A DNA stretch of 64,000 nucleotides, taken from positions 27,729 through 91,728 of the IMG/VR virus record IMGVR_UViG_3300028196_000006; one strand, 5' to 3'. The stretch comes from a virus. Position 1 is the first letter of the stretch. Every line of letters begins with the position of its first letter. Under the pieces are notes generated by a model that was not told the origin of the DNA, did not search any database, and was given only the letters and a program-made list of their open reading frames with translations. This document shows positions 1 to 57,656 of this stretch, in pieces. The position numbers and the translations under genes were made by a program.

Positions 1-2
1 TG

Positions 3-1083: not shown

Positions 1084-2946
1084 ATGGCAGTAGTTTTTAA
1101 ACCTTTTGAAACAGATTACGGATATTCATCACCAGGATTCACGGTTGATGTAAACGGAAATGTCACAGTACGTACTATCACAAATACATACACTCCTCCA
1201 GTTATTCCACCTGCACCAGATTTTAACATAAATGAAACTGCGGGTGAATTTACAATTTTAAACAAAGGAGTTGCAGTTGCCGGAGATAATCCAGTTATTA
1301 CTGTAGAAAGAGGAACAACTTATACATTTGTTATAGATACATCCAGTCTTGCTTTTAACATTTACAAACCAGATGTTGCTAATACTGCCATTCCAGGACA
1401 GTTATATAATGAAGGGTTATCTCATACCAACACAGTTACAGGATTAAATTTACAATCAAGCACGTTAACTTTTCCTCAGACTTGGGAACAAGAGCAAACA
1501 GGGTACAATAGAACTGCTCAAGTAGTAGTACCTATCACAACAGGTACACCACTAGAAGGTAAAAAAATTCCAGTTGTAATTTCATTACATGATAAAGGAT
1601 TTACTCAAGCAAACGGTATTACAAATGTAAACTTTATCTCAGACAAAATTTTAATTGCTCCACAAGGATACAGCAATGAATGGAATGTGGGTTATCAAAC
1701 GTCAAAAGCAGATGACATTGCGTTAATTGATTCTATAATTTCTAGTTTTAGTCAATACGACAATGTGGACACAAGAGATATCACAATAATAGGGTATGGT
1801 AATGGAGCACAATTGGCATTACAATATACAAACTATTCACAAAATGCATCAGTGAAAAATATTATTACATTTAATGGATTATTAAATAGTGATCAATACC
1901 TTTCAACAGATCATACTTTTTACAATTACACATTAGATCCTCAAAACCAAGACAATTCAACTGTTATAAATTGGACAAGTGTCACACCACTAGGTAGTAA
2001 AAATATATTAATGTTTAATGGTAAAGATGATTTACAATTTCTTTTCAATGGTGGAACTATCGATGGACAAGAATTTTACAGTGCAGAAGATACTGTGTAT
2101 GGAATGGCTCAAGCAGATAGCACAATTGAAACTAAACTACTAGCAGGAACCACAGAAGCAGATGGAAGCCTAAGTTATTCTTATGATAATAATTCAATAA
2201 GAATGTATGCTTTCACAGGAGTTGCCAGCAATTTTACAACATATCAAAACTCTATTAGACAAAGAATTAACACATCTATTGCTACAAGCTCATATTTAAA
2301 TATTCCAGTTGCAACAACTTTAACAGAAGCAGAAGCTCAAGGAAAACAATCAGGAACGTTAACTTATGCTGTTCCTATTGATGCTCCAGATTCAATTTTT
2401 TATGCAGACTCAGATGGTACTCCTTATGGTACACTTACTGTGGCCCAGCCAAGTATTATTGGAGCAGGTGTTTTCAGTTCGATATTAGATACTGGCGATT
2501 TATTAGCAGAAGGCGTCAATGCAGAAATAAGATTAAAACCTACTGGAACAGGCACAGTCACTATAAATCCTGCCACAGTAGGAACAATCACCAACATGAA
2601 CATCAATGCACAAAATTTATCAACCAGTGGTCAGGTTAGTTTAACACCCAATGCTGACGTAACATTGAGTCCACAAGCAGGTGGAACGCTCACAGTAAGA
2701 CCAACAGACGTTGGTGTTGTAGACAATGTTACAATAGGGTCTGTAATACCAGGAAATGGAACCTTTTCGACATTGAATTCTTCGCAAGGAACGTTAAATA
2801 ACACTACAATAGGATTAACATCTGCAACGTCGGCGGCATTTACACAAGCAACCGTGACAAACAATCCGACAAGTGCAAATGATGTTACTAAAAAGCAGTA
2901 TGTCGATAACACAGCCACAGTGTTAGCGATAGCATTAGGAGTATAG
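1084..2946 (+). CDS. virion fibre-like protein with cupredoxin-like domain interrupted by a degenerate PHB-depolymerase/LpqC-type alpha/beta-hydrolase domain
   Basis: NPVITVERGTTYTF...SGTLTYAVPIDAPDSIFY flanks PVVISLHD...APQG..NEWN...DDIALI...IIGYGNGA. C-terminal NNTTIG repeats and DVTKKQYVD...LAIALG are typical of phage fibre proteins. Confidence 0.65.
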   Translation: MAVVFKPFETDYGYSSPGFTVDVNGNVTVRTITNTYTPPVIPPAPDFNINETAGEFTILNKGVAVAGDNPVITVERGTTYTFVIDTSSLAFNIYKPDVANTAIPGQLYNEGLSHTNTVTGLNLQSSTLTFPQTWEQEQTGYNRTAQVVVPITTGTPLEGKKIPVVISLHDKGFTQANGITNVNFISDKILIAPQGYSNEWNVGYQTSKADDIALIDSIISSFSQYDNVDTRDITIIGYGNGAQLALQYTNYSQNASVKNIITFNGLLNSDQYLSTDHTFYNYTLDPQNQDNSTVINWTSVTPLGSKNILMFNGKDDLQFLFNGGTIDGQEFYSAEDTVYGMAQADSTIETKLLAGTTEADGSLSYSYDNNSIRMYAFTGVASNFTTYQNSIRQRINTSIATSSYLNIPVATTLTEAEAQGKQSGTLTYAVPIDAPDSIFYADSDGTPYGTLTVAQPSIIGAGVFSSILDTGDLLAEGVNAEIRLKPTGTGTVTINPATVGTITNMNINAQNLSTSGQVSLTPNADVTLSPQAGGTLTVRPTDVGVVDNVTIGSVIPGNGTFSTLNSSQGTLNNTTIGLTSATSAAFTQATVTNNPTSANDVTKKQYVDNTATVLAIALGV

Positions 2947-2952
2947 AAAAGA

Positions 2953-5900
2953 ATGGCAAAAAAACGTATTAACACATACAAATTTACACCAGGAATACCA
3001 CAATCTGGAAACCTTTATCCCAATGCATGGGCACAAATCAATGCCAACAAAGAATGGTTAAAAGATGAATCCAATGCTTTCTTAGATTTTAAAATTACTG
3101 AAGACACAGCGGCAAATTTATATCCAAATGCAACATTAAGATATCTTAACAACAGAGAATATGTAAAAGCAGAAGTGGCGGCATGGGTGGCTGTACAAGT
3201 TGCTGGAAACATTGCACCGTTTGCCGGTTACACTGCCACAGCAACACAAATTAAAAATGATTTAGAAAAAGTTTTACAATCAGCATATCTTGATATGAGA
3301 TATGGTGGTAATGAAAATATTAGAACACAATCACAAACTTATTATGTAGACGGAGTACTTCAACTGGCATCTGCTGGTGAACCTGAATTAGCATATTGGA
3401 CAAAAGCCAAACAAATTATAGATTTATATATTTTCACAGGATTAGCATACGGCACAATTAATGGAGATGGATTATCACAAAACTCCACAGGATCAAATGC
3501 AGAAACAAATGGTAAAACATCATTTGCGGCAAACATGGCTGTGATCGATAATGTTGTGGATAACGGCATTTTAAATTTACCAGCACTATCAAGTTCCGTG
3601 TATGCGTTTGCCAATTTTACTTATGACAGTGCTCTATGTGAAAGAGACATGGGCTATAACATTGATGGTATATTAACAGACATAAGATATGGTGGAAATC
3701 AACAATCAAGATTTAATGCATCAACTTATTGGGTTGGTACAGTATCAGTTTTGAGTGGTGACAAACAACCTGAATTACAGGTAAAAAATGAAATAAAAAA
3801 TATCATTAATAATTATGTGATACCAGGTGTTGCTTTTACGTCAAAACAATCACCGGTGGTAACACAACAAACAATATTAGGTACACCAGGTGAAGCAGGA
3901 GCCACTGCAAGAGTGACTACTTTGTTTGGAATAATTACAGATGTAATTGAAAACGGATTAGATAATTTACCAACACAGATCAACAATGGAATTTCAAGTG
4001 TAAAAATTCCTGAAAGAGTGGAATTAGCAGAACTATTATTGATCACAAATGCTACATCGAATGCAGTTTTATACACATTCAATGATCCAGCAAAAGGCGC
4101 CACAACTTTTTACAGAAGAGAATTTACTACAAACACATCAAACCCAACAGCATTTGTTGATCCAGATTTTCCTAAAGCATTTCATGGCAATGACACAATC
4201 ACAACAATATTTTTAAATGCAGATACATCTGCAGATGATGTAACAGACCAATTACAAATTTTTGTTGAAGATGATGAAATAAGAACTCGTCCATATGACT
4301 TTGGAACAGATGCAATTGAAAGAATGAGAGTTGCACAACCTGAGTCAATGCTTGACGCTGACTTTGAATATGGTCTTCAGCCAACCAAGTGGCAAGCAAT
4401 TGCGACACAAAGAGGTTATCCTTCAATTTATGAAGTTCCAGGAACTGACTATGATTTAGCGTCAGTGGCATCAGATGCTTCAGCAGGAACATCAGGTATT
4501 GGTTCATCTTTGATCACAATAACAACAATTGGACCACATGGTTTTGAGCCTGGACAACCGTTTACAATAACAGGATTTGATAACTCAGTTGCAGGTGCAA
4601 GTAGAGCCGCAGGTTCGTTTGTGGTTAACACAGTGCCATCATCAACAGTTTTTAACTATTATGGAAAAGCAAAAGTTGGAACAGTAAATCCTACAACAAT
4701 TTCTACAAATTTCACTCAGTTGAGAAAAGGTGATTTTTACACAGGTGCATCAATTGGATTTCCGTCATTCAGTATACAATCAAATGGATCATCAGGAAAT
4801 TTTGTAACCAGTTTAGCAACACTATCAGGTTCTACAATTTTACCGTACACAGGTGTTCAACCTGAAATAGGAGCACCACTTACAGGAACAGGAATTCAGA
4901 CAGGTACACAGATTACAGCAGTTAATGGAACTGGTGGAGCATTAGCATCTCCCACAGTGACAGGAGATTATTCATCAGGTGCAACATCAATTACTGTGGC
5001 AGATTCTGCAGGAATTATTCAAAACTCTGTGATTGACAGAGGTGACGGATTTGCAGTAACAATTATCAATGTTGTAGGAAACGAATTAACATTGAGTGCA
5101 CCATTAAATCAAAACTTGATTGGTGATGTTACTCAGTACACAAATTTAGCAGGTGTAAATTACACTCCAGCAGGACAGTTGGGAAGATTCGACATATTCA
5201 GAGTTGGTGGAGCATACTCTGTATCATTAGTGACTAATGGACAAGTAGGTACAGGACAAGATTATGCTGTAGGTGATGTTGTTGTTGTAAGTGGTACTAT
5301 TTTAGGCGGAGCAACACCAGCCAATGATGCTTTTGTAACTGTAGAATCAGTAGACACTGGCGGAGAAATTTTAACAGCATCCATCACAGGTACATCATTC
5401 ACAGGCGAAGGCACAGCATCAGCAGTGTCACCAGTGTTCCAAGGTGGTGCAGGAACAGGTGCTCAAATAAATGTAACAAAAAATGCATCAACATACACAG
5501 TGGCATTGAACAGTCCTTCATACACAGACGTGGCTACATCAGCATACGCAGGAGGATCTGGTATTGGTGCAATTTTTGATATAGATGTAGACGGAGCGAC
5601 ATACACTGTAACAGTTGACACAGCAGGAACAGGATACATTGCCAACGATGTTATAAGAATAGCAGGTTCTACATTTGGTGGAACAGGCACAAATAATTTA
5701 GACATCAGAGTAACTGCTGTAGGCGGTTCAGGAGAAATTCAAACAATCAATGTGGCAGGAACAGCACCAGATCAAACGGTGAATTATGTTTCACCAACAT
5801 ACACAACAGCAAGTGCTGGAGGTGTAACAGCAAACTTCACAGTAACTAGAACAGGCACGGCATACTCTGCTGTGGTAACAACAATTGGTTCAGGATATTC

Positions 5901-8900
5901 AGGGGCAGAAACTCTTGTGTTTGCAGGAACACAACTTGGCGGAGCAACACCAGCCAATGATGCAACATTAACTATTGGATCTGTTGATGGTAATGGTGGA
6001 ATTTTAACTTTCACAATAGCAGGAACATCAGTAAACACACAAACATATCCAAATCAAAACACAGGTTCAAACATTGTAGGATCAAATGCTAGTTTTGATG
6101 TGGCAATTTCAGGAACTGGTTACACAGTAACTTTAAACACTGCTGGTGACAACTACGGTGTTGGACAAACACTTACAATTCTAGGAACAAGTTTAGGTGG
6201 AGCAACACCAACCAATGATGTGTCAATCGCAATTGATACAGTTACAGGCGCAGGTGCCAGTGCAATTGCAACAATTACAGCAACAGGTACAGCGGCATTG
6301 GAAGGTACATCAGGATACGCAATAGGAGATCAATTGTTTGTTAGTGGATCTGACTTAGGCGGAGCAACACCAACCAATGATGCATATGTGTCGATTGCAA
6401 CAGTTAATGGCAATGGCGGAATTACAAGTTTAGCAATCAGTGGAACACGCACAGATGCCAATGTAGATTACACATCAGTAACTTGGAGCACTACAGGCTC
6501 AGGAACAGGTGCAGTGATTGACATTAACAGAACAGGTACAACATACACAGCAACATTCACAAACACTGGTGCCTCATTTGCAGGATCAGACACAATTACA
6601 GTTTTAGGAACAGCACTGGGTGGATTAACGCCAGCCAATGATGTAACAATCGCAGTTGATACAGTTACAGGAGGTGCAATAGCCACGTACACTGTGACAG
6701 GAACAGCAGTGAATACTCAAACATTCACAAATGTAAACAAATCAAACAGAACACCTTCAGGATTATTAATGAACGTGACACTGAATTCAGGTACATACAC
6801 ATTGGCAGTTGCTAATGGTGGTAGCGGACATGCACCAGACCAAGTATTCAAAATATTAGGTACATCGGTTTTTGGATCTTCTCCTACAAATGATTTAACA
6901 TTCACAATTGCAGGTATAGATGCTGTGTCAACAGGTTCAGTTACTTCTGTATCAGGAGCAACAGGAACAGCAAACACAGGAACAGGTAATGCATTAAATG
7001 TTGCAGGCACAAACAGAACTCCAATAGGAGTTGGTGCTCAATTCAGTATCACAAGAACTAATGATACAGATTCATCAACTGCTTACACAGAATGCCAAGT
7101 GATTCAAGAAGGTTCAGACTATGGTGTGGGTGATAAAGTTATAATTTCAGGATCAAGTTTAGGCGGAACAACACCAGCCAATGACGTAACTGTTCAAATA
7201 CAATCAGTATCTTCATTTGGTGGTGCATTATCTAATACACACTCAGGAACAGCAGTTGGAGGAACAGGATTAAGTGTTTATTCATCAGTAACCATTTCAG
7301 ATCCAGTTTCACAAGCAATTCCATTAAGTTCAACAATTTCTTATTCAGCATTGGCAACAATGAGAGTTAATTTCACAACACCACATGGACTTGTTCCAGG
7401 TAATGCATTCTTGGTTGTAATACAATCAGATGACGGTTCAAACAATCACATACTTGCATCAGGACCGTTCTTGGCAACTTCTATTCCATCTACAACAAGT
7501 TTAACATATCAAGTGAGATCACCAGGCGCTATTACAGATGCTGGTTGGCAAGGATCGATATATGGTAGACCAGATTCATTCTTTGTACACAGACCATTCG
7601 ATGGTGGTGTTCAATTAGGAACAGGTGGTCCGGCACACGGTGCTCAAGCAATACGTCAATCTAAAAAATATATTAGATATCAATCAGGTAAAGGTTGTAT
7701 GTACACAACTGGTGCTCTATTTGCTCCAAGTTATGACATTCTAAACATTACTGCTGATGGAATTAATGCAGGTTCAACAATATCAGTAACAACAGATGAT
7801 GTTGACCACAACTTACAAGTTGGTGCTGTTGTGAGATTAGTAGGTGTAGCAACATCAGGGTATGATGGACAATACACAATAACGGCAGTTACAAATGAAA
7901 GAACATTCACAGTGATTGCACAAATCACTTTGGGAGGAACAACTCCTGAATTTACAGATCAACCACAAGTATCATTGTATCAATGGAATGGTGCAACAGT
8001 TAGATCAGGTATATTTGATGATCAAAACGGAATTTTCTGGGAGTATGATGGACAAAACACAAATGCTGTACAAAGAACTGCCACAAGACAATTGGCTGGT
8101 ACAGTCACAGTTACACCTAATTCAAATGCTGTAACAGGTGTGGGAACAAGATTTAGAGAACAAATTAAAGCAGGTGACAGAGTTGTAGTCAGAGGTATGA
8201 CACACGTGGTATCAAGTGTTACAGATAACACAACGATGAGTATTACTCCAGATTACAGAGGTGTTAACATATCAGCAGGTGTTAAAATGTGTGCTGTGGT
8301 TGATAAAAAAGCAAAACAATCAGAATTTAACAAAGACGTGTTGGACGGAACAGGACCAAGTGGATACAACTGGGACGTGTCTAAAATGCAGATGATTGGG
8401 ATACAATTTTCATGGTATGGTGCTGGGTTTATTGACTGGATGACTAGAGGTCAAAAAGGTAATTTCATATTTGTTCACAGAATGAGAAACTCAAACGTAA
8501 ACACAGAAGCATTTATGAGAACAGGTAACCAACCTGTGCGTTATGAAGTAACCAACGAAGGACCAGGTGCAAAATTAATTGAAAATATGGATTCAACACA
8601 AACCACACTTACTGTGGAAGATGCTTCATTCTTACCGCAAACAGGTGGTACAGTTTATATTGATAACGAAGTTATAACATTTACAGGTATTACAGGCGAC
8701 ACATTAACAGGATGTACAAGAGCGGCACAACTTACAAACTTTGCGGCAGGTGCCACAAGAAATTATTCAGCAGGTGCGGCGGCGGCTCACTTCAGAAACA
8801 CTGGAGTTGTGTTGATATCCAACACAGCATCTCCGATCATATCACACTGGGGTTCAGCATATCTAACAGATGGTAATTTTGATGAAGACAGAGGATACCT

Positions 8901-9987
8901 ATTCAGTTACTCAGGTACTGGATTAAATCTATCCACAATTAGACAAACAGTATTCTTAATGAGACTGGCTCCTTCAGTATCCAATGCCTTAACTGGTGAT
9001 TTGGGAGACAGAGACTTATTGAACAGAGCCCAGTTGCTACTAGATGGTATTGAAATTACTACAGAACCAATCTCAGGTGGTGGTACACAAGGTCAGTTGG
9101 TTATTCAGGGAATTATTAACCCACAAAACTATCCAATTGATCCAGCAGATATAGGTTGGACAGGACTGCAAGGAACAGCACAAGGTGGACAACCAAGTTT
9201 TGCGGAGATTGCTCCGGGTGGTTCAGTTAACTGGAACGGTGGTGCTAGTACTACACAAGCAACAGCAACCACTCAAGCAGAAATGACATCTACATCCAAT
9301 CACTGGTTTAACCTAGGTGGTAACAGAGATTATGCTTACTTCTTGGAAGCAGAATGGGAAAACAAAGGACATGTGGTGGGTATGCGTGTTACTTCTGCTC
9401 AATTCCCTTCCAACACTGTGGTAACACAGATTCAGAATAATGGATCTTACTATTTTGTGAGATTTTCAAATAGACACACAGGTATATCGGGCGGACAGGC
9501 TGTAACTTTTGCATACGGTGGTGATCAACTAAACAGTAACTTCTTGTTCTTTGATCCAACATCATGGGAAGCCGCTGGTGCTGTGAGTGGTACAGAAGTT
9601 GACACAGCAACAACAACTGAATTTCCACCAGGATCAACTGTGCAAAGTGTACAGGCTAAAACTGTATTTGGATCAACTGAATATTATAGAGTTGATTTTA
9701 ACCAATCATTTACTGGCACAATTGCCGCGGCAAGTGACGTATCATTTTCTTTTGGACAACCTCCTTATGCACAACCTGGAGAAACTATTTTCTCTTTCGT
9801 TGCACAACCTGGAGAAAGAGCGACATTAGGATTAGACAAAATCAAAGCATTAACCAACACCACTTTGGGTGGTAGAGGTACGTTCCCGAATGGTCCAGAC
9901 GTGTTGGCCATCAACGTATTTAGAACTGCTGGTACAGGTAATGTATCATCTACAATTACGTTACGTTGGTCTGAAGCACAGGCTTAA
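2953..9987 (+). CDS. giant tail-fibre/virion structural protein (2344 aa, Gly/Thr/Ser-rich repeats)
   Basis: N-terminal helical repeats (DMRYGGN, CERDMGY...DIRYGGN), about 7 GGATPxND modules, and a C-terminal domain (IDWMTRG, HRMRNSN) like those of marine myophage structural proteins. Confidence 0.75.
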   Translation: MAKKRINTYKFTPGIPQSGNLYPNAWAQINANKEWLKDESNAFLDFKITEDTAANLYPNATLRYLNNREYVKAEVAAWVAVQVAGNIAPFAGYTATATQIKNDLEKVLQSAYLDMRYGGNENIRTQSQTYYVDGVLQLASAGEPELAYWTKAKQIIDLYIFTGLAYGTINGDGLSQNSTGSNAETNGKTSFAANMAVIDNVVDNGILNLPALSSSVYAFANFTYDSALCERDMGYNIDGILTDIRYGGNQQSRFNASTYWVGTVSVLSGDKQPELQVKNEIKNIINNYVIPGVAFTSKQSPVVTQQTILGTPGEAGATARVTTLFGIITDVIENGLDNLPTQINNGISSVKIPERVELAELLLITNATSNAVLYTFNDPAKGATTFYRREFTTNTSNPTAFVDPDFPKAFHGNDTITTIFLNADTSADDVTDQLQIFVEDDEIRTRPYDFGTDAIERMRVAQPESMLDADFEYGLQPTKWQAIATQRGYPSIYEVPGTDYDLASVASDASAGTSGIGSSLITITTIGPHGFEPGQPFTITGFDNSVAGASRAAGSFVVNTVPSSTVFNYYGKAKVGTVNPTTISTNFTQLRKGDFYTGASIGFPSFSIQSNGSSGNFVTSLATLSGSTILPYTGVQPEIGAPLTGTGIQTGTQITAVNGTGGALASPTVTGDYSSGATSITVADSAGIIQNSVIDRGDGFAVTIINVVGNELTLSAPLNQNLIGDVTQYTNLAGVNYTPAGQLGRFDIFRVGGAYSVSLVTNGQVGTGQDYAVGDVVVVSGTILGGATPANDAFVTVESVDTGGEILTASITGTSFTGEGTASAVSPVFQGGAGTGAQINVTKNASTYTVALNSPSYTDVATSAYAGGSGIGAIFDIDVDGATYTVTVDTAGTGYIANDVIRIAGSTFGGTGTNNLDIRVTAVGGSGEIQTINVAGTAPDQTVNYVSPTYTTASAGGVTANFTVTRTGTAYSAVVTTIGSGYSGAETLVFAGTQLGGATPANDATLTIGSVDGNGGILTFTIAGTSVNTQTYPNQNTGSNIVGSNASFDVAISGTGYTVTLNTAGDNYGVGQTLTILGTSLGGATPTNDVSIAIDTVTGAGASAIATITATGTAALEGTSGYAIGDQLFVSGSDLGGATPTNDAYVSIATVNGNGGITSLAISGTRTDANVDYTSVTWSTTGSGTGAVIDINRTGTTYTATFTNTGASFAGSDTITVLGTALGGLTPANDVTIAVDTVTGGAIATYTVTGTAVNTQTFTNVNKSNRTPSGLLMNVTLNSGTYTLAVANGGSGHAPDQVFKILGTSVFGSSPTNDLTFTIAGIDAVSTGSVTSVSGATGTANTGTGNALNVAGTNRTPIGVGAQFSITRTNDTDSSTAYTECQVIQEGSDYGVGDKVIISGSSLGGTTPANDVTVQIQSVSSFGGALSNTHSGTAVGGTGLSVYSSVTISDPVSQAIPLSSTISYSALATMRVNFTTPHGLVPGNAFLVVIQSDDGSNNHILASGPFLATSIPSTTSLTYQVRSPGAITDAGWQGSIYGRPDSFFVHRPFDGGVQLGTGGPAHGAQAIRQSKKYIRYQSGKGCMYTTGALFAPSYDILNITADGINAGSTISVTTDDVDHNLQVGAVVRLVGVATSGYDGQYTITAVTNERTFTVIAQITLGGTTPEFTDQPQVSLYQWNGATVRSGIFDDQNGIFWEYDGQNTNAVQRTATRQLAGTVTVTPNSNAVTGVGTRFREQIKAGDRVVVRGMTHVVSSVTDNTTMSITPDYRGVNISAGVKMCAVVDKKAKQSEFNKDVLDGTGPSGYNWDVSKMQMIGIQFSWYGAGFIDWMTRGQKGNFIFVHRMRNSNVNTEAFMRTGNQPVRYEVTNEGPGAKLIENMDSTQTTLTVEDASFLPQTGGTVYIDNEVITFTGITGDTLTGCTRAAQLTNFAAGATRNYSAGAAAAHFRNTGVVLISNTASPIISHWGSAYLTDGNFDEDRGYLFSYSGTGLNLSTIRQTVFLMRLAPSVSNALTGDLGDRDLLNRAQLLLDGIEITTEPISGGGTQGQLVIQGIINPQNYPIDPADIGWTGLQGTAQGGQPSFAEIAPGGSVNWNGGASTTQATATTQAEMTSTSNHWFNLGGNRDYAYFLEAEWENKGHVVGMRVTSAQFPSNTVVTQIQNNGSYYFVRFSNRHTGISGGQAVTFAYGGDQLNSNFLFFDPTSWEAAGAVSGTEVDTATTTEFPPGSTVQSVQAKTVFGSTEYYRVDFNQSFTGTIAAASDVSFSFGQPPYAQPGETIFSFVAQPGERATLGLDKIKALTNTTLGGRGTFPNGPDVLAINVFRTAGTGNVSSTITLRWSEAQA
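5305..7185 (+). repeat. intragenic repeat modules (LGGATPANDA)
   Basis: GGCGGAGCAACACCAGCCAATGATGC is identical at 5305-5330 and 5938-5963, with 1 mismatch at 6358-6383; degenerate copies near 6195, 6620, 6875 and 7160. Confidence 0.85.
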
Positions 9988-10109
9988 TGGACCAACAGAT
10001 CAAACATATATGCGAGACGTGTGGGTGTGAACAACACTGCAAAAAATCGTGTGGAGAATGTCTAGATTGTCCAGACTGTGGTTGTAAGGAATGTATTAAC
10101 AAAGACTGA
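9987..10109 (+). CDS. 40-aa Cys-rich metallothionein-like peptide (below the ORF-track cutoff)
   Basis: Hand translation MDQQIKHICETCGCEQHCKKSCGECLDCPDCGCKECINKD*: 10 Cys, 2 His. Its ATG overlaps the fibre stop (TAATG) and it ends 4 nt before the next ATG. Confidence 0.7.
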   Translation: MDQQIKHICETCGCEQHCKKSCGECLDCPDCGCKECINKD

Positions 10110-10113
10110 TAAG

Positions 10114-48742: not shown

Positions 48743-50196
48743 GATGTAAAATTATAATCACAGATGAAGTCAATGTAAAAATTGAAGGATTGCCTGTTGA
48801 TGTTAGAAGAAAGATTGCTAACAAACTAAAATTTTCAGTTCCTTATGCAAGGTACTTACCACAATACAAACTAGGACGATGGGATGGTAAGGTTGGTTTC
48901 TTTGGTTTAGGTGGTAATGGATACGTTAATCATTTGGATAAAATTATAGAATATCTTAACGAATCGGGTGTTGAGATAGAAGAAGTAGATGACAAAAGAG
49001 AAAAGTTTGATTTAACATTTGATAAAGTTACTAAAGATTTTTTTGCAAGTAAGTCGTGGCCCAAAGGTCACATATGCGAAGGTCAACCAATCGAACTGAG
49101 AGATTATCAAGTTGATGTAATTAATAATTTTATTAAAGAACCACAAAGTTTACAGGAAGTTGCCACTGGTGCTGGTAAAACAATTATCACAGCGGCATTG
49201 AGTAGTATATGCGAAAAATTTGGACGTACTCTAGTAATTGTGCCCAACAAAGGTCTTGTGACTCAAACAGAAGAAGATTATATCAATGTTGGTTTAGATG
49301 TTGGTGTTTACTTTGGAGATAGAAAAGAATTAAACCGTACACACACAATTTGTACTTGGCAAAGTTTAAATGTTTTAGATAAAAAATCTAAAGCAGGCGA
49401 ATCTGTTTTGACATTGTCTGATTTTTTAGAAGGTGTTAAAACTGTTATTATAGACGAAGTTCACCAAGCAAAAGCAGAAGTTCTTAAAAAATTATTAACA
49501 CAGCATCTAAAAAATGCTCCTGTAAGATGGGGGTTAACAGGCACAGTGCCTAAAGAACAATTTGAATTTCAAAGTATATTAGCAAGTATAGGTCCTGTTG
49601 TTAATCAAATATCAGCAAAAGAATTGCAAGACAAGGGTGTATTATCTACATGTCATGTGAATGTTGTACAACTGATCGATACCGAAGTTTATACAAATTA
49701 TCAAGAAGAATTAAAATACTTGGTCACTAATGAAAAAAGAATAGAATACATTGGCAAGATGATTAATAAAATTAAAAGCGGAGGAAACACTCTTGTGTTA
49801 GTTGATAGATTAACAGCAGGAAAGAGCTTGAGCGAAATAGTAGATGATAGTGTGTTTATTCAAGGAGAAACCAAGTTAGTAGATAGAAAAGAAACTTACG
49901 ATACAATCAAAGAAGGCACTAACAAAGTTATCATAGCAACTTATGGTGTAGCCAGTGTGGGTATTAACATACCAAGAATATTCAATCTAATATTAATTGA
50001 GCCAGGCAAGTCGTTTGTTAGGGTGATTCAATCAATTGGAAGAGGCATACGTAAGGCAGAAGACAAAGACTTTGTGCAGATATGGGACTTAACTTCAAGT
50101 TGTAAATTTGCTAAAAGACATTTAACACATAGAAAAAAATTTTATAAGGATGCAAATTATCCTTTTACAATAGAAAAGTTGGATTGGACAAAATGA
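48739..50196 (+). CDS. uvsW: SF2 DNA helicase
   Basis: WDGK, LRDYQ, ATGAGKT, IDEVH, GLTGT, GINIP, QSIGRGIR. Confidence 0.9.
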   Translation: MRCKIIITDEVNVKIEGLPVDVRRKIANKLKFSVPYARYLPQYKLGRWDGKVGFFGLGGNGYVNHLDKIIEYLNESGVEIEEVDDKREKFDLTFDKVTKDFFASKSWPKGHICEGQPIELRDYQVDVINNFIKEPQSLQEVATGAGKTIITAALSSICEKFGRTLVIVPNKGLVTQTEEDYINVGLDVGVYFGDRKELNRTHTICTWQSLNVLDKKSKAGESVLTLSDFLEGVKTVIIDEVHQAKAEVLKKLLTQHLKNAPVRWGLTGTVPKEQFEFQSILASIGPVVNQISAKELQDKGVLSTCHVNVVQLIDTEVYTNYQEELKYLVTNEKRIEYIGKMINKIKSGGNTLVLVDRLTAGKSLSEIVDDSVFIQGETKLVDRKETYDTIKEGTNKVIIATYGVASVGINIPRIFNLILIEPGKSFVRVIQSIGRGIRKAEDKDFVQIWDLTSSCKFAKRHLTHRKKFYKDANYPFTIEKLDWTK

Positions 50197-51017
50197 GAAT
50201 AGCAGGAGCACAAATACCAGTAACAAATGATGTGAAAACAAATGCTGAAGCAATAATGAAAGCATGCGAATGGGCAGTAGAAAACAAAGTAGATTATTTG
50301 TTTACACCTGAAACATCATTGAGTGGATACAACACACCAGCATTTACTTTGAACACTTGCAAAGAAACTGAAGATGCAATGGCAAAATTAGTAGAGTATG
50401 CTTCAAACAACAAGTTGGGATTGATCATAGGAACACTTTGGTTAGACGATAAAGATAAAATTAATGGTGCTTACTTTGGATTCAAATCAAATCAATTAAG
50501 ATTTTACAATCAAGAAGGAGAATACATTGGGTCTACGAAAAAAACTAAAATTGTAAGTTTTGATTCAGATTGTGAAAAAGAAACTAAAACTCCAGTTATT
50601 ACACTTACAGCAGGAGAAGAAAAAATGAAAATTGGTGCTCTTATCTGTAATGATCTTGTAGGAAATTATTATTGGGGAGGCGAAAATCTTGCTAGTAAAC
50701 TTAAACAAGAAGAAGTTGCTTTAATAATTCATGCCAGTAACACACAAAAAGATCAAGGCAAACACATCAAATTAATACATGACAAATTTCATGACGCTTG
50801 TATGCAGTTTGTATCATATGCCACTAACACACCAATATTAAGTGTTGATAATCCTTGGCATATACATGGCTCAGAGTCAGAAGACGGTACATCGTTTACA
50901 TCAGGAATTTATCTTCCATTAGAGGCAAAATATCAGGCACCCAAGACAGGCACTCACTACTTTTATTACGATCACAGCGACATAACTCATTCATTTATGG
51001 AAGGAACAAACAAATGA
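50193..51017 (+). CDS. carbon-nitrogen hydrolase (nitrilase superfamily)
   Basis: IAGAQ, FTPETSLSGY (Glu), KTK (Lys), LICND (Cys) catalytic triad. Confidence 0.82.
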   Translation: MRIAGAQIPVTNDVKTNAEAIMKACEWAVENKVDYLFTPETSLSGYNTPAFTLNTCKETEDAMAKLVEYASNNKLGLIIGTLWLDDKDKINGAYFGFKSNQLRFYNQEGEYIGSTKKTKIVSFDSDCEKETKTPVITLTAGEEKMKIGALICNDLVGNYYWGGENLASKLKQEEVALIIHASNTQKDQGKHIKLIHDKFHDACMQFVSYATNTPILSVDNPWHIHGSESEDGTSFTSGIYLPLEAKYQAPKTGTHYFYYDHSDITHSFMEGTNK

Positions 51018-51520
51018 AAATATTAACAGTGGAAAATACTACATACGATCTAGACAAGATGCCGCACACAGTATCAGACGATATGGCATTCAGTGTGTTA
51101 GATAACAGTAATCCAAAAGAACCAGATTTCTTTTTCTTGCCATTAATTTACATTGAATCTTTCAATGCTCCGGCAATAGTTTTAGATATTGGTGGTAAAG
51201 AGATTACTATGCCATTAGATTGGAGCATAGCCGTGGGAGACAAAGAAGACAGTAACACAGTTGAAGTTGTGCCGTTAACCAGTATTGCAGACAGAGGATT
51301 CTCAGCATTTATTTTTAATCCGTTAACTGGATTCAAAGCAGACTTTTTTGAAGTTAATGTTATAAATTTTTACAACGATGTTAAATGGTATTTTCCAAAA
51401 ATAAAAAACAATCAACTGCTATCAATACCGTTAACAAATACAAAAAAACCAGATTGTGCTTTTTTTGTAAAAGATATTTCAAGACAGTGTGAAAGTATAG
51501 AATACACGTCATTATTATAA
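51014..51520 (+). CDS. hypothetical protein
   Basis: Start MKILTVEN with ATGA overlap; beta-rich. Confidence 0.6.
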   Translation: MKILTVENTTYDLDKMPHTVSDDMAFSVLDNSNPKEPDFFFLPLIYIESFNAPAIVLDIGGKEITMPLDWSIAVGDKEDSNTVEVVPLTSIADRGFSAFIFNPLTGFKADFFEVNVINFYNDVKWYFPKIKNNQLLSIPLTNTKKPDCAFFVKDISRQCESIEYTSLL

Positions 51521-51768
51521 TGCCAAAAAAAAAAGAACCTGCAATGATTTACGAGAGTCCCGATGGCGGAGCAACAGTGTATGCACGACCAATTAATGGC
51601 AAAGGTGAGCGGGTGTTGATTGAAGAACCAAAATACCCAGACTGGCATTTGACAGAATTAGAGATAAGCCAAGTTGTAGATTATGCATCTGAAGGAAACA
51701 AGTCTTTACAAATACAGTTAAAGAAGTTAAAATTAATATATAATTTAATTAGAGAAGACAGATGGTAA
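51520..51768 (+). CDS. hypothetical protein
   Basis: IYESPDGGATVYAR; translationally coupled. Confidence 0.6.
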   Translation: MPKKKEPAMIYESPDGGATVYARPINGKGERVLIEEPKYPDWHLTELEISQVVDYASEGNKSLQIQLKKLKLIYNLIREDRW

Positions 51769-52241
51769 ACAACACTAACAAACTACCTTTAAAAGATATA
51801 TTGGCGGCTATCGACATGAATGCTAAAAATGTATGGAACGACTTGTCTGATGACGAACGCAAACAGGTATCGTTTTATCTGTTGAACAGATATGCCAGTG
51901 CTATCAAAGGTACATCAGAAGAAAAACAATTACAAATATTTAAAACAAATCAGTATTACAATAAACATTTTTTTACATTATCCAAACACAAAAAACTATT
52001 ATGGTATTTGCTTTGCATGACTGCTAATGATACGAAATCAATAAAATATCACGAATGGATTGGATACAAACAAAAAGGTAGTAACAGTACAGCAAAAGCA
52101 ATGAAGTTTTTAGAAAAATTATATCCATCTAGAAAACAAGACGAATTAAGATTACTGGCAAGCATCAACTCAACTAAAGAATTAAAACAGTTAGCAGAAG
52201 ATTCAGGAATGACGAAAGAACAAATTAAGAAAACATTTTAA
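51762..52241 (+). CDS. clamp-loader small subunit-like (T4 gp62-like)
   Basis: DILAAID...FYLLNRY...NQYYN...HKKL.WYLL...HEWI. Confidence 0.5.
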   Translation: MVNNTNKLPLKDILAAIDMNAKNVWNDLSDDERKQVSFYLLNRYASAIKGTSEEKQLQIFKTNQYYNKHFFTLSKHKKLLWYLLCMTANDTKSIKYHEWIGYKQKGSNSTAKAMKFLEKLYPSRKQDELRLLASINSTKELKQLAEDSGMTKEQIKKTF

Positions 52242-52924
52242 TGATTGAAAAACTTTATTCGTGCAAATACTGTAATGCAAAATTTGCCAAAGAAAAAACT
52301 TTATCAGTGCATATGTGTGAACAAAAACGAAGATTTGTACAAAAAGATGAACGTAGAGTACAACTAGGATATCAAACATTTATGAGATTTTATGAACTAT
52401 GTCAAAAATCTAGTAAATCAAAATCGTATGAAGACTTTTGTAAGTCTCCTTATTATACAGCATTTGTAAAATTTGGCAGTTTTATCAGTAATGTTAAGCC
52501 GTTGTATCCAAACAAGTATATCGATTATGTTGTTACATCTGGCGTAAAACTAGATCATTGGTGCAGAGAAGAAATGTATTTGAAATATGCAGGAGATTTA
52601 ATTTTAAGAGAACCGGTTGAAACAGCCATGGAAAGATCAATCAAAACTATGATGGATTGGGGAGACGAAAAACAAGCACCATGGGGAGATTATTTTAGAT
52701 ATGCAAGTCTAAACAGAGCAGTAATTGATATTAAAGACGGAAAGATATCTCCTTGGTTGATATTAAATTGTAAAAGCGGTAAAGTTATGATGAAGAAATT
52801 TAATGATGAACAATTACAGATTGTGTATCCGGTGATGGATCCATCACATTGGGCATTAAGATTTAAGCGATTACCAGCAGATATTGAAATGATAAAAGAA
52901 ATTGTAAAGGAGGCAGGACTATGA
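52241..52924 (+). CDS. hypothetical protein with N-terminal Zn finger
   Basis: CKYC...F..E..L..H.C. Confidence 0.6.
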   Translation: MIEKLYSCKYCNAKFAKEKTLSVHMCEQKRRFVQKDERRVQLGYQTFMRFYELCQKSSKSKSYEDFCKSPYYTAFVKFGSFISNVKPLYPNKYIDYVVTSGVKLDHWCREEMYLKYAGDLILREPVETAMERSIKTMMDWGDEKQAPWGDYFRYASLNRAVIDIKDGKISPWLILNCKSGKVMMKKFNDEQLQIVYPVMDPSHWALRFKRLPADIEMIKEIVKEAGL

Positions 52925-53574
52925 TCAAAGAACACAATGTTGTTCCATTGTTTGGAATACCACTTTGTCAAACACAAATACAACCATATGAAGAAAGTGA
53001 AAACTTTCTAAAAGAAAAAATAGAATATGTTGAACGATCACACAAAGTATCATACATATCTAAAGATGATTACGTACTAGATAATGAAAACTTGATGCCA
53101 CTCAAAAATGAAATTGAAACTCAGGTAAGCGAATTTATGCATGGATATTTAGACATACACGAAAAGCATAGATTTATTATCACAACAAGTTGGTGTAATA
53201 GATATGAACATAATCATTTTATACAAGAACATTATCATAGTAACAGTTTAATATCCGGAGTATTATTTTTATCAGACTGTCAAGACACAGCAAATATTGT
53301 ATTTCATAAAGATAAAAATCATACAAATATTTTTACTGATACAGTAAAATTAGATCACAAAGATGAATTCGATTATGTTAACAAAAGAAGTTATCTATAT
53401 CATCAATCTAAAATGGCAATTAGTCCAAAGAAATGGGATTTAGTTATGTTTCCAAGTTTTTTAAATCACAGTGTTGAAGCCAACACTAGCACAACTAATG
53501 TAAGACACACACTGTCATTTAATGTTTGGGTTAAAGGTGAAATAGGTGGCGGACACAGTAAATTGGTATTATAA
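52921..53574 (+). CDS. putative 2OG-Fe(II) oxygenase (TIGR02466-like; paralog of 17603)
   Basis: SWCN...HYHSNSLISGV...MFPSFLNHSV...R.TLSFN. Confidence 0.8.
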   Translation: MIKEHNVVPLFGIPLCQTQIQPYEESENFLKEKIEYVERSHKVSYISKDDYVLDNENLMPLKNEIETQVSEFMHGYLDIHEKHRFIITTSWCNRYEHNHFIQEHYHSNSLISGVLFLSDCQDTANIVFHKDKNHTNIFTDTVKLDHKDEFDYVNKRSYLYHQSKMAISPKKWDLVMFPSFLNHSVEANTSTTNVRHTLSFNVWVKGEIGGGHSKLVL

Positions 53575-54131
53575 TGTTTGATGTAGATATAGACTTTGCA
53601 GATAGAAATGTGTTATTAGAAAAACTAAAACACAGAGTAGCCAAATTAGAAAATGGTAAAAAGCACAATACTGGTGTTTACTTTACAGAGATACCGCATG
53701 ACCCTGCAACTAATCTATCTACTTTAGATTATGAAACTGCTGAAGATAGAAACTATTTTAAATTGGATTGCTTAAATGTAAGTATATACAAAAATGTAAA
53801 AGACAACGATCACTTAAACAAATTAATGACAACAAAACCAGTATGGGAATTATTAGAAGCCAAAGAATTTAGTGATCAAGTTTTCCACTTGAACGGACAT
53901 AATGATATTTTAAAAACATTAAAGCCAAAAAATATAGAACAATTGGCGGCTGTGTTGGCAATTATACGACCTAGCAAAAGATATCTACTCAATAAAGATT
54001 GGGACACAATAATGAAAGAAGTTTGGATTAAACCAACTGACGACAAATACTTTTTTAAGAAATCACACGCAACATCCTACGCATTCGCAGTGGTGGTACA
54101 CATGAATCTTATCTGTGAACAATTAACTTGA
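53574..54131 (+). CDS. minimal DNA polymerase III alpha (DnaE)-like catalytic protein
   Basis: FDVDIDF, KHNTGVY, FKLDCL, LAAVLAIIRP, FKKSHATSYA appear in DnaE order within 185 aa. Confidence 0.8.
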   Translation: MFDVDIDFADRNVLLEKLKHRVAKLENGKKHNTGVYFTEIPHDPATNLSTLDYETAEDRNYFKLDCLNVSIYKNVKDNDHLNKLMTTKPVWELLEAKEFSDQVFHLNGHNDILKTLKPKNIEQLAAVLAIIRPSKRYLLNKDWDTIMKEVWIKPTDDKYFFKKSHATSYAFAVVVHMNLICEQLT

Positions 54132-54497
54132 TTATTTAGGTTTACGAACTAGTTGAACTGATTTTCTCTTACTTCGTTTCATAGCAAGATTGTTAAGACT
54201 TGTGACAGGACCTATCTTTACATTGACATCTTTCGTGTTCATCATCATCAAACACTCGCGAAATTTGATTAATTCTTTACGTAAAAATATACCCATTGGG
54301 ATCATTCTGTTGCTTTCCCACCACCAAGTTTGACATAAACTCATAAACTCTTCCTTGGCATTTGCATGTATTTCTTCGTACACATAAATGGAGGTGATGG
54401 AGTTATCTTGGTTGTTGATTACCCCAACATACTCTTTTCCGCCGTATTCGACGACTGAGATAAACGGAAAGTTCTTTTCGATGTCGTTTAATAGCAT
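54132..54497 (-). CDS. hypothetical protein
   Basis: 121-aa ORF (YVGVINNQD, WWWESNRMIP) filling the gap. Confidence 0.6.
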   Translation of the reverse strand: MLLNDIEKNFPFISVVEYGGKEYVGVINNQDNSITSIYVYEEIHANAKEEFMSLCQTWWWESNRMIPMGIFLRKELIKFRECLMMMNTKDVNVKIGPVTSLNNLAMKRSKRKSVQLVRKPK

Positions 54498-54523
54498 TTT
54501 AATATCAATAAATACATAAGATT

Positions 54524-55309
54524 ATGCAACTTGTTTCGAAATATTTATTAAATAACAATGTAACTCTTACCGCAAACCTGGCAGGAGAAATAACGGAGTA
54601 TAGATCAGTGTATCAAAGAAATTTAAACATCGCTAAAGGAATAGACAACCCAATTCAGTTCAATGTGCTTAATGCAGATCAGAAACCTGTATCTATATTG
54701 AACACATATACGCCCAAGTTTCAATTGTATGATGAAAATAACAGATTAATAGTATCAAGAGACGGTACTGTGATTGAAACTTCTACTCCCAGCAAAGTGG
54801 GACATTTCACAGTTACAATAACAGAAAATGACTTATTAAACATTAAATCACAATACATGCACTACACAGTGTATCTACAAAAAAATTCTGATTCAACAAA
54901 AACTATATTGCACAGTGGTGTAAATTTTGAAAATAAAGGCACAGTGTACATCAGCACAGAAGAGTTCCCAGGTCCAGTTGACTCGTACTCTGTGACAACA
55001 TTCATCGAAGACAACCCAGGTTCGGGTGTGTTCGTTTCAGAAACAGTAACAGCAGAACCAACCATAAATGGTAATTCAGCATTGCACACTGTGGCTTATT
55101 ATCTTGACGAAGCAGTTGGTGACATAGTTGTACAAGGCACCCTTGCCAATCAGATTGATGGAAACACATTTTGGACAGACATTAATACATTCGCATCCAC
55201 AGATGCAAATAACTTGAAATATGTAAACTTCAATGGAGTGTACAGTTATTTGAGATTCAAACACACACTGACTTCTGGTAGTGTTACCAAAATATTAATT
55301 CGAAATTAA
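54524..55309 (+). CDS. hypothetical protein, probably structural (Ig/BppU-like N-terminus)
   Basis: KGIDNPIQF.VLNADQKP; ATAAATA at 54508-54514. Confidence 0.55.
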   Translation: MQLVSKYLLNNNVTLTANLAGEITEYRSVYQRNLNIAKGIDNPIQFNVLNADQKPVSILNTYTPKFQLYDENNRLIVSRDGTVIETSTPSKVGHFTVTITENDLLNIKSQYMHYTVYLQKNSDSTKTILHSGVNFENKGTVYISTEEFPGPVDSYSVTTFIEDNPGSGVFVSETVTAEPTINGNSALHTVAYYLDEAVGDIVVQGTLANQIDGNTFWTDINTFASTDANNLKYVNFNGVYSYLRFKHTLTSGSVTKILIRN

Positions 55310-55338
55310 TTGACTTTTATCACATTTTAACTTATAAT
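55310..55338 (+). promoter_or_regulatory. sigma70-type promoter TTGACT-N17-TATAAT
   Basis: The -10 box ends 6 nt before primase ATG 55345. Confidence 0.75.
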
Positions 55339-55344
55339 AACAGC

Positions 55345-56349
55345 ATGAACATTGTGCTTGACGTTTTACAAACTTATCTTCCTGCCAAAAGAAAACAAAC
55401 ACCCAGTGGTTGGGTGGCTTTTAATGCACCGTGTTGTGGACACAATGGAACAACTCCTGACACTAGACAAAGAGGTGGATTGATTGCTAAGGCAGACGAG
55501 AGTGTGAGTTTTCATTGTTTCAACTGTGGATTTAAAACGAGTTGGCGTATTGGGAGAAACTTATCTTATAAAATGAAAAAATTTATGAGGTGGTTGAATA
55601 TGCCCGATGATGTAATCACAAAACTAGCACTTCAAGTTTTACAACAAAAGACAGATGATACAGGATTCAAGTCAATTGTCACACTTCCAAAATTTACAAT
55701 TAAAGAACTTCCGCCCAAAGCAAAACCAATATACGAGTGGGCAACATACAAAGATTTAGAACCCAGTGGAGTTGATAAAGATTTATTTTCTGTGATGGAA
55801 TACATTGCTAAAAGAAAATTAACACTCGATGATTATGATTTTTACTGGAGTCCTGAAGCAGGATTTAGAGATAGATTAATCATACCTTTTATTCATCAAT
55901 CAAAAATTGTGGGATACACAGCCAGGAAAGTTGTGGAAAGCAAAGTGAAATATTTGTCAGAACAACAACCAGGATATGTGTTTAACACAGATGCACAAGA
56001 TGATGATAGAAAATATATTGTAGCAATGGAAGGACCTATCGATGCTATTGCCGTTGACGGGATTGCGTTACTGGGTAGTGAAATTAAAGAACAACAATCA
56101 ACATTGGTAAACAGTTTAGGAAAACATGTGATTGTGGTTCCTGACAGAGATGAAGCAGGACAAAAATTAGTTTGGGATAGTTTCGAAGCAGGCTGGAGTG
56201 TGAGTATGCCGGATTGGGACCAAGATGTCAAAGACGTCAACGATGCTGTGTGTAAATATGGTAGACTTCATACATTGTATACAATAATAAAGAATGCTGA
56301 AGATTCACAACTAAAAACTAAACTAAGGATGAAAAAATGGTTCGCATAA
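55345..56349 (+). CDS. DNA primase (T4 gp61-like)
   Basis: Zn ribbon (PCC...HCFNCG), RLIIPF, GYTAR, TOPRIM EGPIDA...PDRDEAG, KDVND. Confidence 0.9.
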   Translation: MNIVLDVLQTYLPAKRKQTPSGWVAFNAPCCGHNGTTPDTRQRGGLIAKADESVSFHCFNCGFKTSWRIGRNLSYKMKKFMRWLNMPDDVITKLALQVLQQKTDDTGFKSIVTLPKFTIKELPPKAKPIYEWATYKDLEPSGVDKDLFSVMEYIAKRKLTLDDYDFYWSPEAGFRDRLIIPFIHQSKIVGYTARKVVESKVKYLSEQQPGYVFNTDAQDDDRKYIVAMEGPIDAIAVDGIALLGSEIKEQQSTLVNSLGKHVIVVPDRDEAGQKLVWDSFEAGWSVSMPDWDQDVKDVNDAVCKYGRLHTLYTIIKNAEDSQLKTKLRMKKWFA

Positions 56350-56471
56350 AGAATTTTTTAAAAAAAGCGATCTCAATTTTGTTTTTTCCTATCACTAAAC
56401 TTGTAAACTACATCAAGTACAAGAAGAAGATTAGAGAATTGCAAAAGAGAGACCCGTTCATATACAAGTAG
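56337..56471 (+). CDS. small basic protein (44 aa, not in ORF track)
   Basis: Hand translation MVRIKNFLKKAISILFFPITKLVNYIKYKKKIRELQKRDPFIYK*; fills the gap. Confidence 0.6.
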   Translation: MVRIKNFLKKAISILFFPITKLVNYIKYKKKIRELQKRDPFIYK

Positions 56472-56472
56472 A

Positions 56473-56649
56473 ATGTATTACGTTTTAGAAGGAATACATA
56501 AAGACCCAATGGATATGAAAACATTGGACAACAAAACAAAAAAGGAATATGGTCCTATGAATAAAATAAAAGCCAACGAGTTAGCAAAATCGCTGATTCA
56601 AAGAAACATTGATGACTTTTATCACAGAGCATGGGTAATTGAAAGATGA
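56473..56649 (+). CDS. small protein (58 aa, DUF4170-like; not in ORF track)
   Basis: MYYVLEGIHKDP...EYGP...KSLIQRNIDDFYHRAWVIER*; ATGA overlap with the next gene. Confidence 0.6.
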   Translation: MYYVLEGIHKDPMDMKTLDNKTKKEYGPMNKIKANELAKSLIQRNIDDFYHRAWVIER

Positions 56650-57656
56650 TCATTTGGGGAATAACAGGAAATAATCACGATGCCAGTTTGGCAGTGATGG
56701 AATGGAAGGTAAAAGGATTAACGCCTAATTACCATCTTAGATTAAAATGGGCAGGCATGAGCAAAGATTTTAGTGGAGTTGCTGGAGATCCAACGTTGTG
56801 TCCTAAACTGATGGCAGAAGTAAGAGCAAATCCTAAATGGGCCTACCCTGCAAAGATTTATTTTTATGAAAAGCCTTGGAAGAAAACTATGAGACAACTG
56901 ATTGCAGGACAAGGTTGGAAATGGAAAGAAAATGATATTAAAAAGTTTTTGGCAAAATCTGGTGTACACAATGTTCCTATAGAATATGTTGATCATCATC
57001 ATAGCCATGCGGCATATGGATATTACACATCGGGATTTAAAAATGCGGCAGTTATTGTTTTAGATTCGATTGGTGAGTTTGAAACATTTACTATTTGGCA
57101 CGGCAGAGGTACCAGGTTGGAGAAGAAGTACACACAACGTTATCCACACAGCATAGGTTTATTTTATTCAGCAATGACACAAAGATGTGGATTCAAAGCA
57201 AACGCAGAAGAATACAAATTAGAACAATTGGCGAAAAAAGGTAATTGGAGAAAGTATCATAGAATGATGATGGAAGAAATTATAGACACCAGAATGCCTT
57301 TCAAAACAAGAATAAATCTGCATAGAGGTTGTAATTGGTGGAGACCAGAATTAAACACAGAAGAAGACATGGCTGATCTAGCCGCAACTACACAGCACAT
57401 TTTTGAACAAGTGTTGATGTGTGCAAGTTCGTGGATACAGATGCATATCAACACATCAAACATAGTTTTGGTAGGCGGATGTGCATTGAATAAAACTGCT
57501 GTGAGTAAATTAAGTGCAGTTTGGGATGATATATGGGTGCCAACAAATCCTGGTGATCCTGGATCGTGTATAGGTGCAGTGTGTGCCAAATATCAAAAGC
57601 ACATTGACTTTCACGGAGAAATGTGGTATAATAAGGACAATGGTGAAACAAAATAA
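56646..57656 (+). CDS. carbamoyltransferase (NodU/CmcH/TobZ family), Kae1-like domain only
   Basis: NHDASLA, YEKP, HHHSHAA, DSIGE, PHSIGLFYS, GGCALN, PGDPGS.IG; ends without the YrdC-like domain. Confidence 0.8.
   Translation: MIIWGITGNNHDASLAVMEWKVKGLTPNYHLRLKWAGMSKDFSGVAGDPTLCPKLMAEVRANPKWAYPAKIYFYEKPWKKTMRQLIAGQGWKWKENDIKKFLAKSGVHNVPIEYVDHHHSHAAYGYYTSGFKNAAVIVLDSIGEFETFTIWHGRGTRLEKKYTQRYPHSIGLFYSAMTQRCGFKANAEEYKLEQLAKKGNWRKYHRMMMEEIIDTRMPFKTRINLHRGCNWWRPELNTEEDMADLAATTQHIFEQVLMCASSWIQMHINTSNIVLVGGCALNKTAVSKLSAVWDDIWVPTNPGDPGSCIGAVCAKYQKHIDFHGEMWYNKDNGETK
57604..57632 (+). promoter_or_regulatory. sigma70-type promoter TTGACT-N17-TATAAT with extended TG
   Basis: Inside the carbamoyltransferase 3' end; 7 nt before helicase ATG 57640. 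Confidence 0.72.

Follow-up and report, generated by a model that had tools for sequence, protein, structure and literature searches.

Here we show that the pentanucleotide GCWGC (W, A or T) is wholly missing from a 64,000-nucleotide stretch of viral DNA (this whole stretch is called the window), which spans positions 27729–91728 of the IMG/VR record IMGVR_UViG_3300028196_000006, a linear viral contig of 91,728 bp. GCAGC and GCTGC number zero in the window and zero in the entire contig, which bears out by exact count what an original prediction, made by reading the letters of the window, had reported from inspection. The depletion is specific to GCWGC, total and achieved by synonymous recoding. 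From this, from its spread through a clade of related phages and from selection that continues to operate, we infer a nuclease as the agent and a host as its origin: GCWGC is probably kept out by purifying selection against double-strand cutting during infection, with a host restriction enzyme as the most likely cutter. The contig is about one-quarter of the genome of an uncultured, marine, T4-like jumbo phage of ~350 kb (CheckV completeness of 26%, which implies a genome of about that size).

The absence is far outside what composition would give. Dinucleotide shuffles of the window lead to an expectation of ~49 GCWGC matches, and a maximal-order Markov model to 92 sites in the contig. A synonymous-codon shuffle of its 85 open reading frames (ORFs), which keeps the protein sequence and codon usage of each ORF, gives 91.1 ± 5.1 (minimum of 76 in 300 shuffles; z of about −18). 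Under this codon-shuffle null, GCAGC/GCTGC is the most depleted of all 512 strand-collapsed 5-mers (z of −20) and GCCGC/GCGGC the most enriched, with 108 copies in the contig against about 29–30 expected (3.6–3.7-fold). The 13 other one-mismatch neighbours of GCWGC have observed/expected ratios (O/E) of 0.57–1.27. The ratio for GCWGC itself, 0 against ~91–92, is therefore nowhere near 1, and GCSGC (S, C or G), far from sharing the depletion, is in excess; on both counts the avoidance that had been proposed holds.

The missing word has been written around in the codons. GCA and GCT make up 82% of Ala codons in the contig, and in Ala–Ala pairs the first codon is GCG (80 of 102) or GCC (22 of 102) and no other, so that a regularity described from more than 25 pairs turns out to be exact; because all 102 pairs open in this way, GCSGC is enriched. 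The Ala runs cited in support are present at 38454–38462 and at the three positions listed in Table 1. After a codon of the form NGC, Ser is encoded only by AGT or TCN, never AGC, and Cys only by TGT, never TGC; between xxG and Cxx, Gln is only CAA and Leu never CTG. Silent recoding that avoids GCWGC is thus seen in all three reading frames. It extends, as also proposed, to accessory genes: seven consecutive ORFs of the glycan island (Table 1) are absent even from a relative that is 81% identical, and this segment is a lineage-specific insertion, yet wholly free of GCWGC.

Selection against the word has continued into recent divergence. Alignment of the contig with that 84-kb relative (65.8 kb aligned, 81% identity) contains 12,322 substitutions; random substitutions of the same number and types create 41 ± 7 new GCWGC sites (minimum 23), and the relative has 0. 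The same simulation applied to two more distant relatives had the same outcome. The pressure against GCWGC is old, strong and still acting, which fits the suggestion of long residence in one host lineage.

Distribution among relatives and host leads

The contig carries T4-type late genes (a gp15-like sheath stabiliser, sheath, tube and large terminase, TerL), genes of replication and recombination (a gp32-like protein, UvsX/RecA, a UvsW-like helicase and a Toprim primase-like gene) and also an ADP-heptose and glycan gene set. Its closest cultured TerL is that of the Pseudomonas jumbo phage PA5oct (52% identity), and identities to jumbo phages of Agrobacterium, Sinorhizobium, Erwinia, Serratia, Xanthomonas and Yersinia are 42–48%. 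With TerL as anchor, 80 IMG/VR loci were fetched (74–99% TerL identity, mostly marine) which, with the contig itself, make a set of 81. GCWGC is avoided in 75 of these and present at normal counts in 6; in a second collection, from metagenomes, 67 of 80 further TerL loci have no GCWGC at all. Larger relatives have 0 sites against 158 expected (116.6 kb), 0 against 86 (84 kb) and 0 against 62 (60 kb). The purge is clade-wide, common to nearly all relatives across oceans, and we found no account of it in the literature on marine jumbo phages. A sequencing or assembly artefact, the chance of which is negligible, is ruled out by the agreement of independent samples from dozens of metagenomes and three collections, and is contradicted also by the in-frame synonymous codons that fill would-be GCWGC positions.

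On the TerL tree, avoidance changes about four times. A three-member non-avoiding clade (L030, L033 and L034) is sister to 37 avoiders, and two further non-avoiders (L075 and L076) each adjoin avoiders; no gene within ~10 kb either side of TerL separates the two groups. Relatives binned with freshwater-type metagenome-assembled genomes (MAGs; Polynucleobacter, Crocinitomicaceae) have normal GCWGC counts, which is what a host-dependent pressure would predict. Five cultured comparators (HTVC008M, P-SSM2, Syn9, PA5oct and Vibrio phage 2.275.O) also lack the avoidance. One relative (G009; L093–L096) has 7 sites against 87 expected. Its sites cluster, four within 1.2 kb (55755–56901) and two within 10 bp (11761–11770), perhaps in segments that were gained, or freed from the pressure, only recently.

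A further relative is a contig of 335,231 bp (L142–L158, that is, G030:C57; PBPT01000016.1), a near-complete phage genome with a TerL 75% identical to that of our contig and homologs of 54 of its 85 ORFs. GCWGC occurs 35 times in this contig, where 413 sites are expected. It sits in a MAG labelled Candidatus Neomarinimicrobiota, and the same bin holds a 153-kb second copy. More generally, contigs of the clade are binned in MAGs labelled Neomarinimicrobiota, Rickettsiales, Polynucleobacter, Crocinitomicaceae and Methanobacteriota (L142–L158; L127, L130, L131, L134 and L264), labels that should not be taken as hosts.

The idea that the pattern would serve as a handle for host prediction yielded no host. 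The only lead is in the 335-kb relative, which encodes ten tRNAs and, at 42048–42355 (+) (L144:2048–2355), a permuted transfer-messenger RNA (tmRNA) of alphaproteobacterial type (Rfam RF01849, 145 bits) with the tag ANDNYAPEMAMAA. The prefix of this tag is almost exclusive to Alphaproteobacteria; its last letters are GCGGCC, in place of GCUGC in the family consensus. The closest full-length tmRNA (85% identity) is on a second phage contig (L264), which was wrongly binned with a 'Rickettsiales' MAG. This makes the RNA old and conserved in the phage lineage, and the hint that it gives about the host is at the level of class only. A BLAST search with the tmRNA against 401 alphaproteobacterial genomes returned matches to the conserved core only, and the sole exact match to its tag was the phage contig itself. 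Homology of HldE gave one, uninformative match, on a 25%-GC contig without a phage TerL in a single-cell genome labelled SAR116, and a protein atlas returned viral clusters only.

Companion words and their flanking bases

At least four other words are purged along with GCWGC, and these had escaped the original prediction. In the contig, observed and codon-shuffle expected counts are 16 and 228 for AGCT, 9 and 52 for GCGC, 19 and 65 for GGCC, 5 and 25 for CTGCAG, and 8 and 23 for CGCG, with the deficits of CTGCAG and CGCG due in part to overlap with GCWGC and GCGC. Across the clade, restriction-type palindromes (AGCT, GCGC, GGCC, TGCA, GTGCAC and CGCG) are purged in lineage-specific combinations: AGCT, whose state changes three times on the TerL tree, is at zero in several subclades and at normal counts in others, TGCA is purged in one lineage (23 against 161 expected) and GTGCAC in the 335-kb relative (2 against 64). 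These combinations look like changing repertoires of host restriction.

The survivors of these purges obey a rule about the bases beside them. We classed sites as flanked if G stands just 5′ or C just 3′ of the site, and as H..D (H, not G; D, not C) if neither does. Unflanked H..D copies are the ones missing from the contig: 0 against 167.6 expected for AGCT, 0 against 22.4 for GCGC, 0 against 7.4 for GTGCAC and 5 against 45 for GGCC. Flanked copies number 16 (61 expected), 9 (30), 5 (6.6) and 14 (18), respectively, so that all 16 surviving AGCT and all 9 surviving GCGC are flanked by a 5′ G or a 3′ C. GCWGC is at zero in both classes (H..D, 0 against 69.5; flanked, 0 against 21.6), and its purge is therefore absolute here, with no flank exception.

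Elsewhere in the clade GCWGC follows the same rule. All 35 GCWGC sites of the 335-kb relative are flanked, compared with 31% of control GCSGC sites, as are all 7 in the relative with clustered sites described above. In the clade pool, a 5′ G is present on at least one strand at 44 of 44 GCWGC, 62 of 62 AGCT and 90 of 90 GCGC survivors (196 of 196 in total), and less consistently at GGCC (41 of 67) and TGCA (13 of 43). The base before the protective G is itself almost never G (0/50, 1/69 and 0/104; background 9–31%), so that survivors take the form HG + site, or site + CD when read on the other strand. Non-avoiding relatives have no flank bias. A flank rule also appears in the cultured pelagiphage HTVC008M, in which GATC reads GGATC or GATCC in 24 of 24 cases.

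A single protective flank, on one strand, suffices, which resembles hemi-protection by a DNA mark. We tentatively suggest, as a possibility that we would not yet favour, that the flank rule betrays a so far undescribed modification of phage DNA: a mark at a G preceding a purine which, lying next to the site on one strand, would block cutting. Under such a mark, avoidance would be needed only for the unshielded copies of a site. The mark would then have to be ineffective against the GCWGC cutter met by the lineage of our contig, and it could be of the deazapurine type, made by an enzyme not recognisable as DpdA.

Other scarce words were noted in passing. HTVC008M (50 kb, L102) has no TCGA and 1 CGCG against 24 expected, and P-SSM2 (100 kb, L107–L111) has zero GCGC, CGCG and CCGG. 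Within the genes of the window, CCTCC/GGAGG is scarce (41 against 108 expected), and words containing TATA are reduced to ~0.6–0.7 in the window; both fit avoidance of internal words that resemble Shine–Dalgarno sequences and T4-type late promoters (TATAAATA).

Table 1 Features of the window (positions counted from its first nucleotide)
Feature	Position	Strand	Remarks
GCWGC-free stretch	1..64000	.	Part of the GCWGC-free contig; GCSGC n = 59 in the window
Recoded Ala run GCG GCG GCG GCT	8776..8787	+	2344-aa fibre gene
Recoded Ala-Ala-Ala GCG GCG GCA	22870..22878	+	Tail-tube gene
Large terminase (TerL) gene	27347..28936	+	Marker for collecting relatives; 160 related loci
Accessory glycan-island genes	37306..42662	+	GCWGC-free; without homolog in 13 related contigs (tblastn presence/absence matrix)
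Recoded GCC GCC GCG	39796..39804	+	Accessory ORF 39535–40689, without homolog in relatives
Surviving AGCT (n = 10)	2287, 2334, 10440, 20414, 22289, 23709, 27760, 31597, 32858, 49825 (range 2287..49828)	.	All GAGCT or AGCTC
Surviving GCGC (n = 5)	4097, 6248, 7526, 10220, 44090 (range 4097..44093)	.	All preceded by AG

Search for the agent and rival explanations

The original prediction held that a host nuclease, or a phage nuclease directed at host DNA, selects against GCWGC. This is supported in part, in that a pattern so specific, total and recoded fits selection against a site-specific nuclease. The search that it proposed for a phage nuclease or methyltransferase returned no DNA methyltransferase and no type II restriction enzyme in the 91.7 kb of the contig, the 28 related contigs and the 335-kb relative. 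The cytosine-5 and N4/N6 DNA methylase families (PF00145 and PF01555) have no match in the contig and its 28 related contigs (29 clade contigs), and TGT/DpdA (PF01702) has none in the contig, seven large relatives and the 335-kb contig. PADLOC was run on 77 ORFs of the contig and 350 of the 335-kb relative, a set without ORFs of more than 900 aa and without ten ORFs of that relative that cross the boundaries of fetched pieces, and found in it no DNA methylase, no DpdA and no convincing type II restriction enzyme. Its weak 'REase_II' match is a generic 169-aa HNH protein, and its 'mREase_IV' (type IV) match is the helicase domain of the UvsW-like gene. ORF 10078–10701 was rejected as a DNA methylase, being a small-molecule-type methyltransferase (Methyltransf_24).

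Genes of the type found in the preQ0 pathway (FolE, QueE-, QueD- and QueC-like) occur in the 335-kb relative only, with none in the contig. At 138126–140949 of the relative (L148:18126 to L149:949), a purine phosphoribosyltransferase-like gene, a HIT protein, FolE (129 bits) and a QueE-like radical-SAM gene stand in a row; the QueE-like gene, which adjoins FolE, matches five QueE models, each below cut-off. A QueD/PTPS-like gene lies at 72027–72530 (L145:12027–12530; 45 bits), and the QueC-like gene has only a weak PP-loop match. Between 153 and 180 kb the relative has at least six more radical-SAM genes, an ATP-grasp gene, PhyH and a PP-loop protein. The FolE/Que-like genes and this 27-kb block may belong to a deazapurine or other small-molecule pathway, and we treat them as leads only. 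In the window, five overlapping genes at 60009–63819 (−) comprise a 356-aa ORF without a Pfam match, a class-III aminotransferase, two Asp/Asn beta-hydroxylase-like proteins and a 2OG-Fe(II) oxygenase; no link between these genes and DNA modification was found.

A site-specific nuclease very probably drives the purge, and that this nuclease is encoded by the host we regard as the likelier case. The cutter would be a type II enzyme of the host, either TseI/ApeKI-like (G^CWGC) or BbvI-like (GCAGC). BbvI-type enzymes recognise GCAGC, which taken in both orientations is GCWGC, the same footprint as that of TseI and ApeKI. As no protecting methylase was found in the phage sequences searched, each new GCWGC would be lethal or costly and would be removed, and the proteins would be preserved through synonymous codons such as GCG or GCC ahead of another Ala codon. 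Several points weigh against a host restriction enzyme as the cause. There is no cultured anchor, in that a SAR11 phage, two cyanophages and PA5oct, the nearest cultured relative, are all non-avoiding. Host restriction systems usually differ between strains. For one word to be purged across many oceans and 25% TerL protein divergence, the host enzyme would have to be very widespread, or else the cause would have to lie within the phage. The contig is ~26% of its genome, so a phage nuclease or methylase could be encoded elsewhere. Finally, plain restriction avoidance does not account for the strict 5′-G flank rule that the other purged words obey.

Some of these points bear on an alternative that we consider unlikely on balance, in which an unguarded (methylase-free) restriction-like endonuclease of the phage itself, encoded elsewhere in the ~350-kb genome, cuts host DNA at GCWGC, the phage being safe for want of sites. 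Conservation of the purge in a deep, cosmopolitan clade is easier to reconcile with a steady pressure from within the phage than with host systems that vary by strain, and the loss of GCWGC even where flanks protect the other words (0 against 21.6), the lack of a methylase in the clade contigs searched and the small share of the genome in hand (just 26%) also suit it. It has to contend with the PADLOC result, in which no convincing type II restriction enzyme was found among the 77 and 350 ORFs, and with the failure of any gene near TerL to split avoiders from non-avoiders; moreover, several words purged in changing combinations would require several nucleases to come and go.

The remaining alternatives dispense with cutting. 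That GCWGC is a signal for phage DNA machinery (packaging, priming or recombination) or for binding by a host protein, with stray copies harmful, would account for the clade-wide constancy and for a nuclease search without a candidate. We hold it to be improbable: a signal is expected to be used somewhere, and the word, absent throughout 91.7 kb, including non-coding DNA, could serve as one only within the unseen 74% of the genome; it is strand-symmetric and purged alongside classic restriction palindromes; and related lineages have lost the avoidance completely without visible change in core genes. Mutational decay, in which GCWGC sites methylated at cytosine-5 would be lost to deamination with no selection involved, can draw on the 5-methylcytosine (5mC) that M.ApeKI-type enzymes produce at GCWGC (PMC8557920). 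It was rejected on the spectrum of neighbouring words and is very improbable. The putative products of deamination are not enriched (GTAGC/GCTAC, O/E of 0.57; GCAGT/ACTGC, 1.07), and the word that replaces GCWGC is GCSGC, which requires changes of the central base. Nor can decay yield zero in 91.7 kb or block the ~41 new sites of recent divergence, and no C5 methylase was found in the clade contigs searched. A host restriction enzyme remains the cause that we favour, with an unguarded nuclease of the phage as a serious competitor, given how much of the genome is unseen and how unusually constant the trait is.

Zero GCWGC, together with the lineage-specific missing words, provides a simple sequence marker for a cosmopolitan clade of uncultured marine giant phages. 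The marker records the DNA-cutting defences that these phages have met, and it can be matched to the methylomes and restriction genes of candidate hosts. The flank rule, if it reflects a true DNA mark, would be of greater consequence: it points to an undescribed modification system in abundant ocean phages, for which HTVC008M is available as a cultured model.

Comparison with known systems

Site avoidance is a known phage strategy, and the GCWGC purge is best read as a known kind of phenomenon, the classical avoidance of restriction sites, as surveyed by Rusinov et al. (2018; PMC6286503). As in the virulent double-stranded DNA phages described there, restriction-type words are removed by synonymous recoding, several at once, and no self-methylation gene was found in the contig. 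What differs is the scale: here a whole cosmopolitan clade of uncultured marine phages of ~350 kb is involved, and the avoidance is absolute over hundreds of kilobases. A flank rule such as that of the companion words is not mentioned in the title and abstract of the survey.

The enzymes that the missing word calls to mind are TseI and ApeKI, which cut G^CWGC, an established specificity of restriction and methylation (PMC3643589, PMC8557920), as the original prediction had it. GCWGC methylation has also been seen in aquatic bacteria, the known enzymes being orphan N4-methylcytosine (m4C) methylases of Chloroflexi (PMC6329791, PMC8919816). The recognition word of TseI, ApeKI and BbvI is the word missing here, and GCSGC, outside their specificity, shows no depletion. 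Unlike the setting of this study, the known sources of these enzymes are thermophiles or Bacillus-like bacteria, not marine plankton, and the sequences searched yielded neither such an enzyme nor a methylase of this kind.

The flank rule invites comparison with the 7-deazaguanine modification of phage DNA by DpdA, which acts at GA and GGC in phage CAjan (PMC7544227) and at GA in phage iggy (PMC10484667). As with the dPreQ0 motifs of CAjan, a G added to AGCT gives GA, and a G added to GCGC or GCWGC gives GGC; and the 335-kb relative has FolE, QueE-like and QueD-like genes. Unlike DpdA systems, the sequences examined here contain no TGT/DpdA homolog and no clear QueC. The sequence contexts also diverge. 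GGCC contains GGC and yet is purged here, whereas CAjan DNA resists HaeIII; the protective G must not itself follow G (H stands before it); and GATC of HTVC008M contains the GA motif, yet is purged unless it reads GGATC. It is this unexplained flank rule, rather than the purge of GCWGC, that could be new biology.

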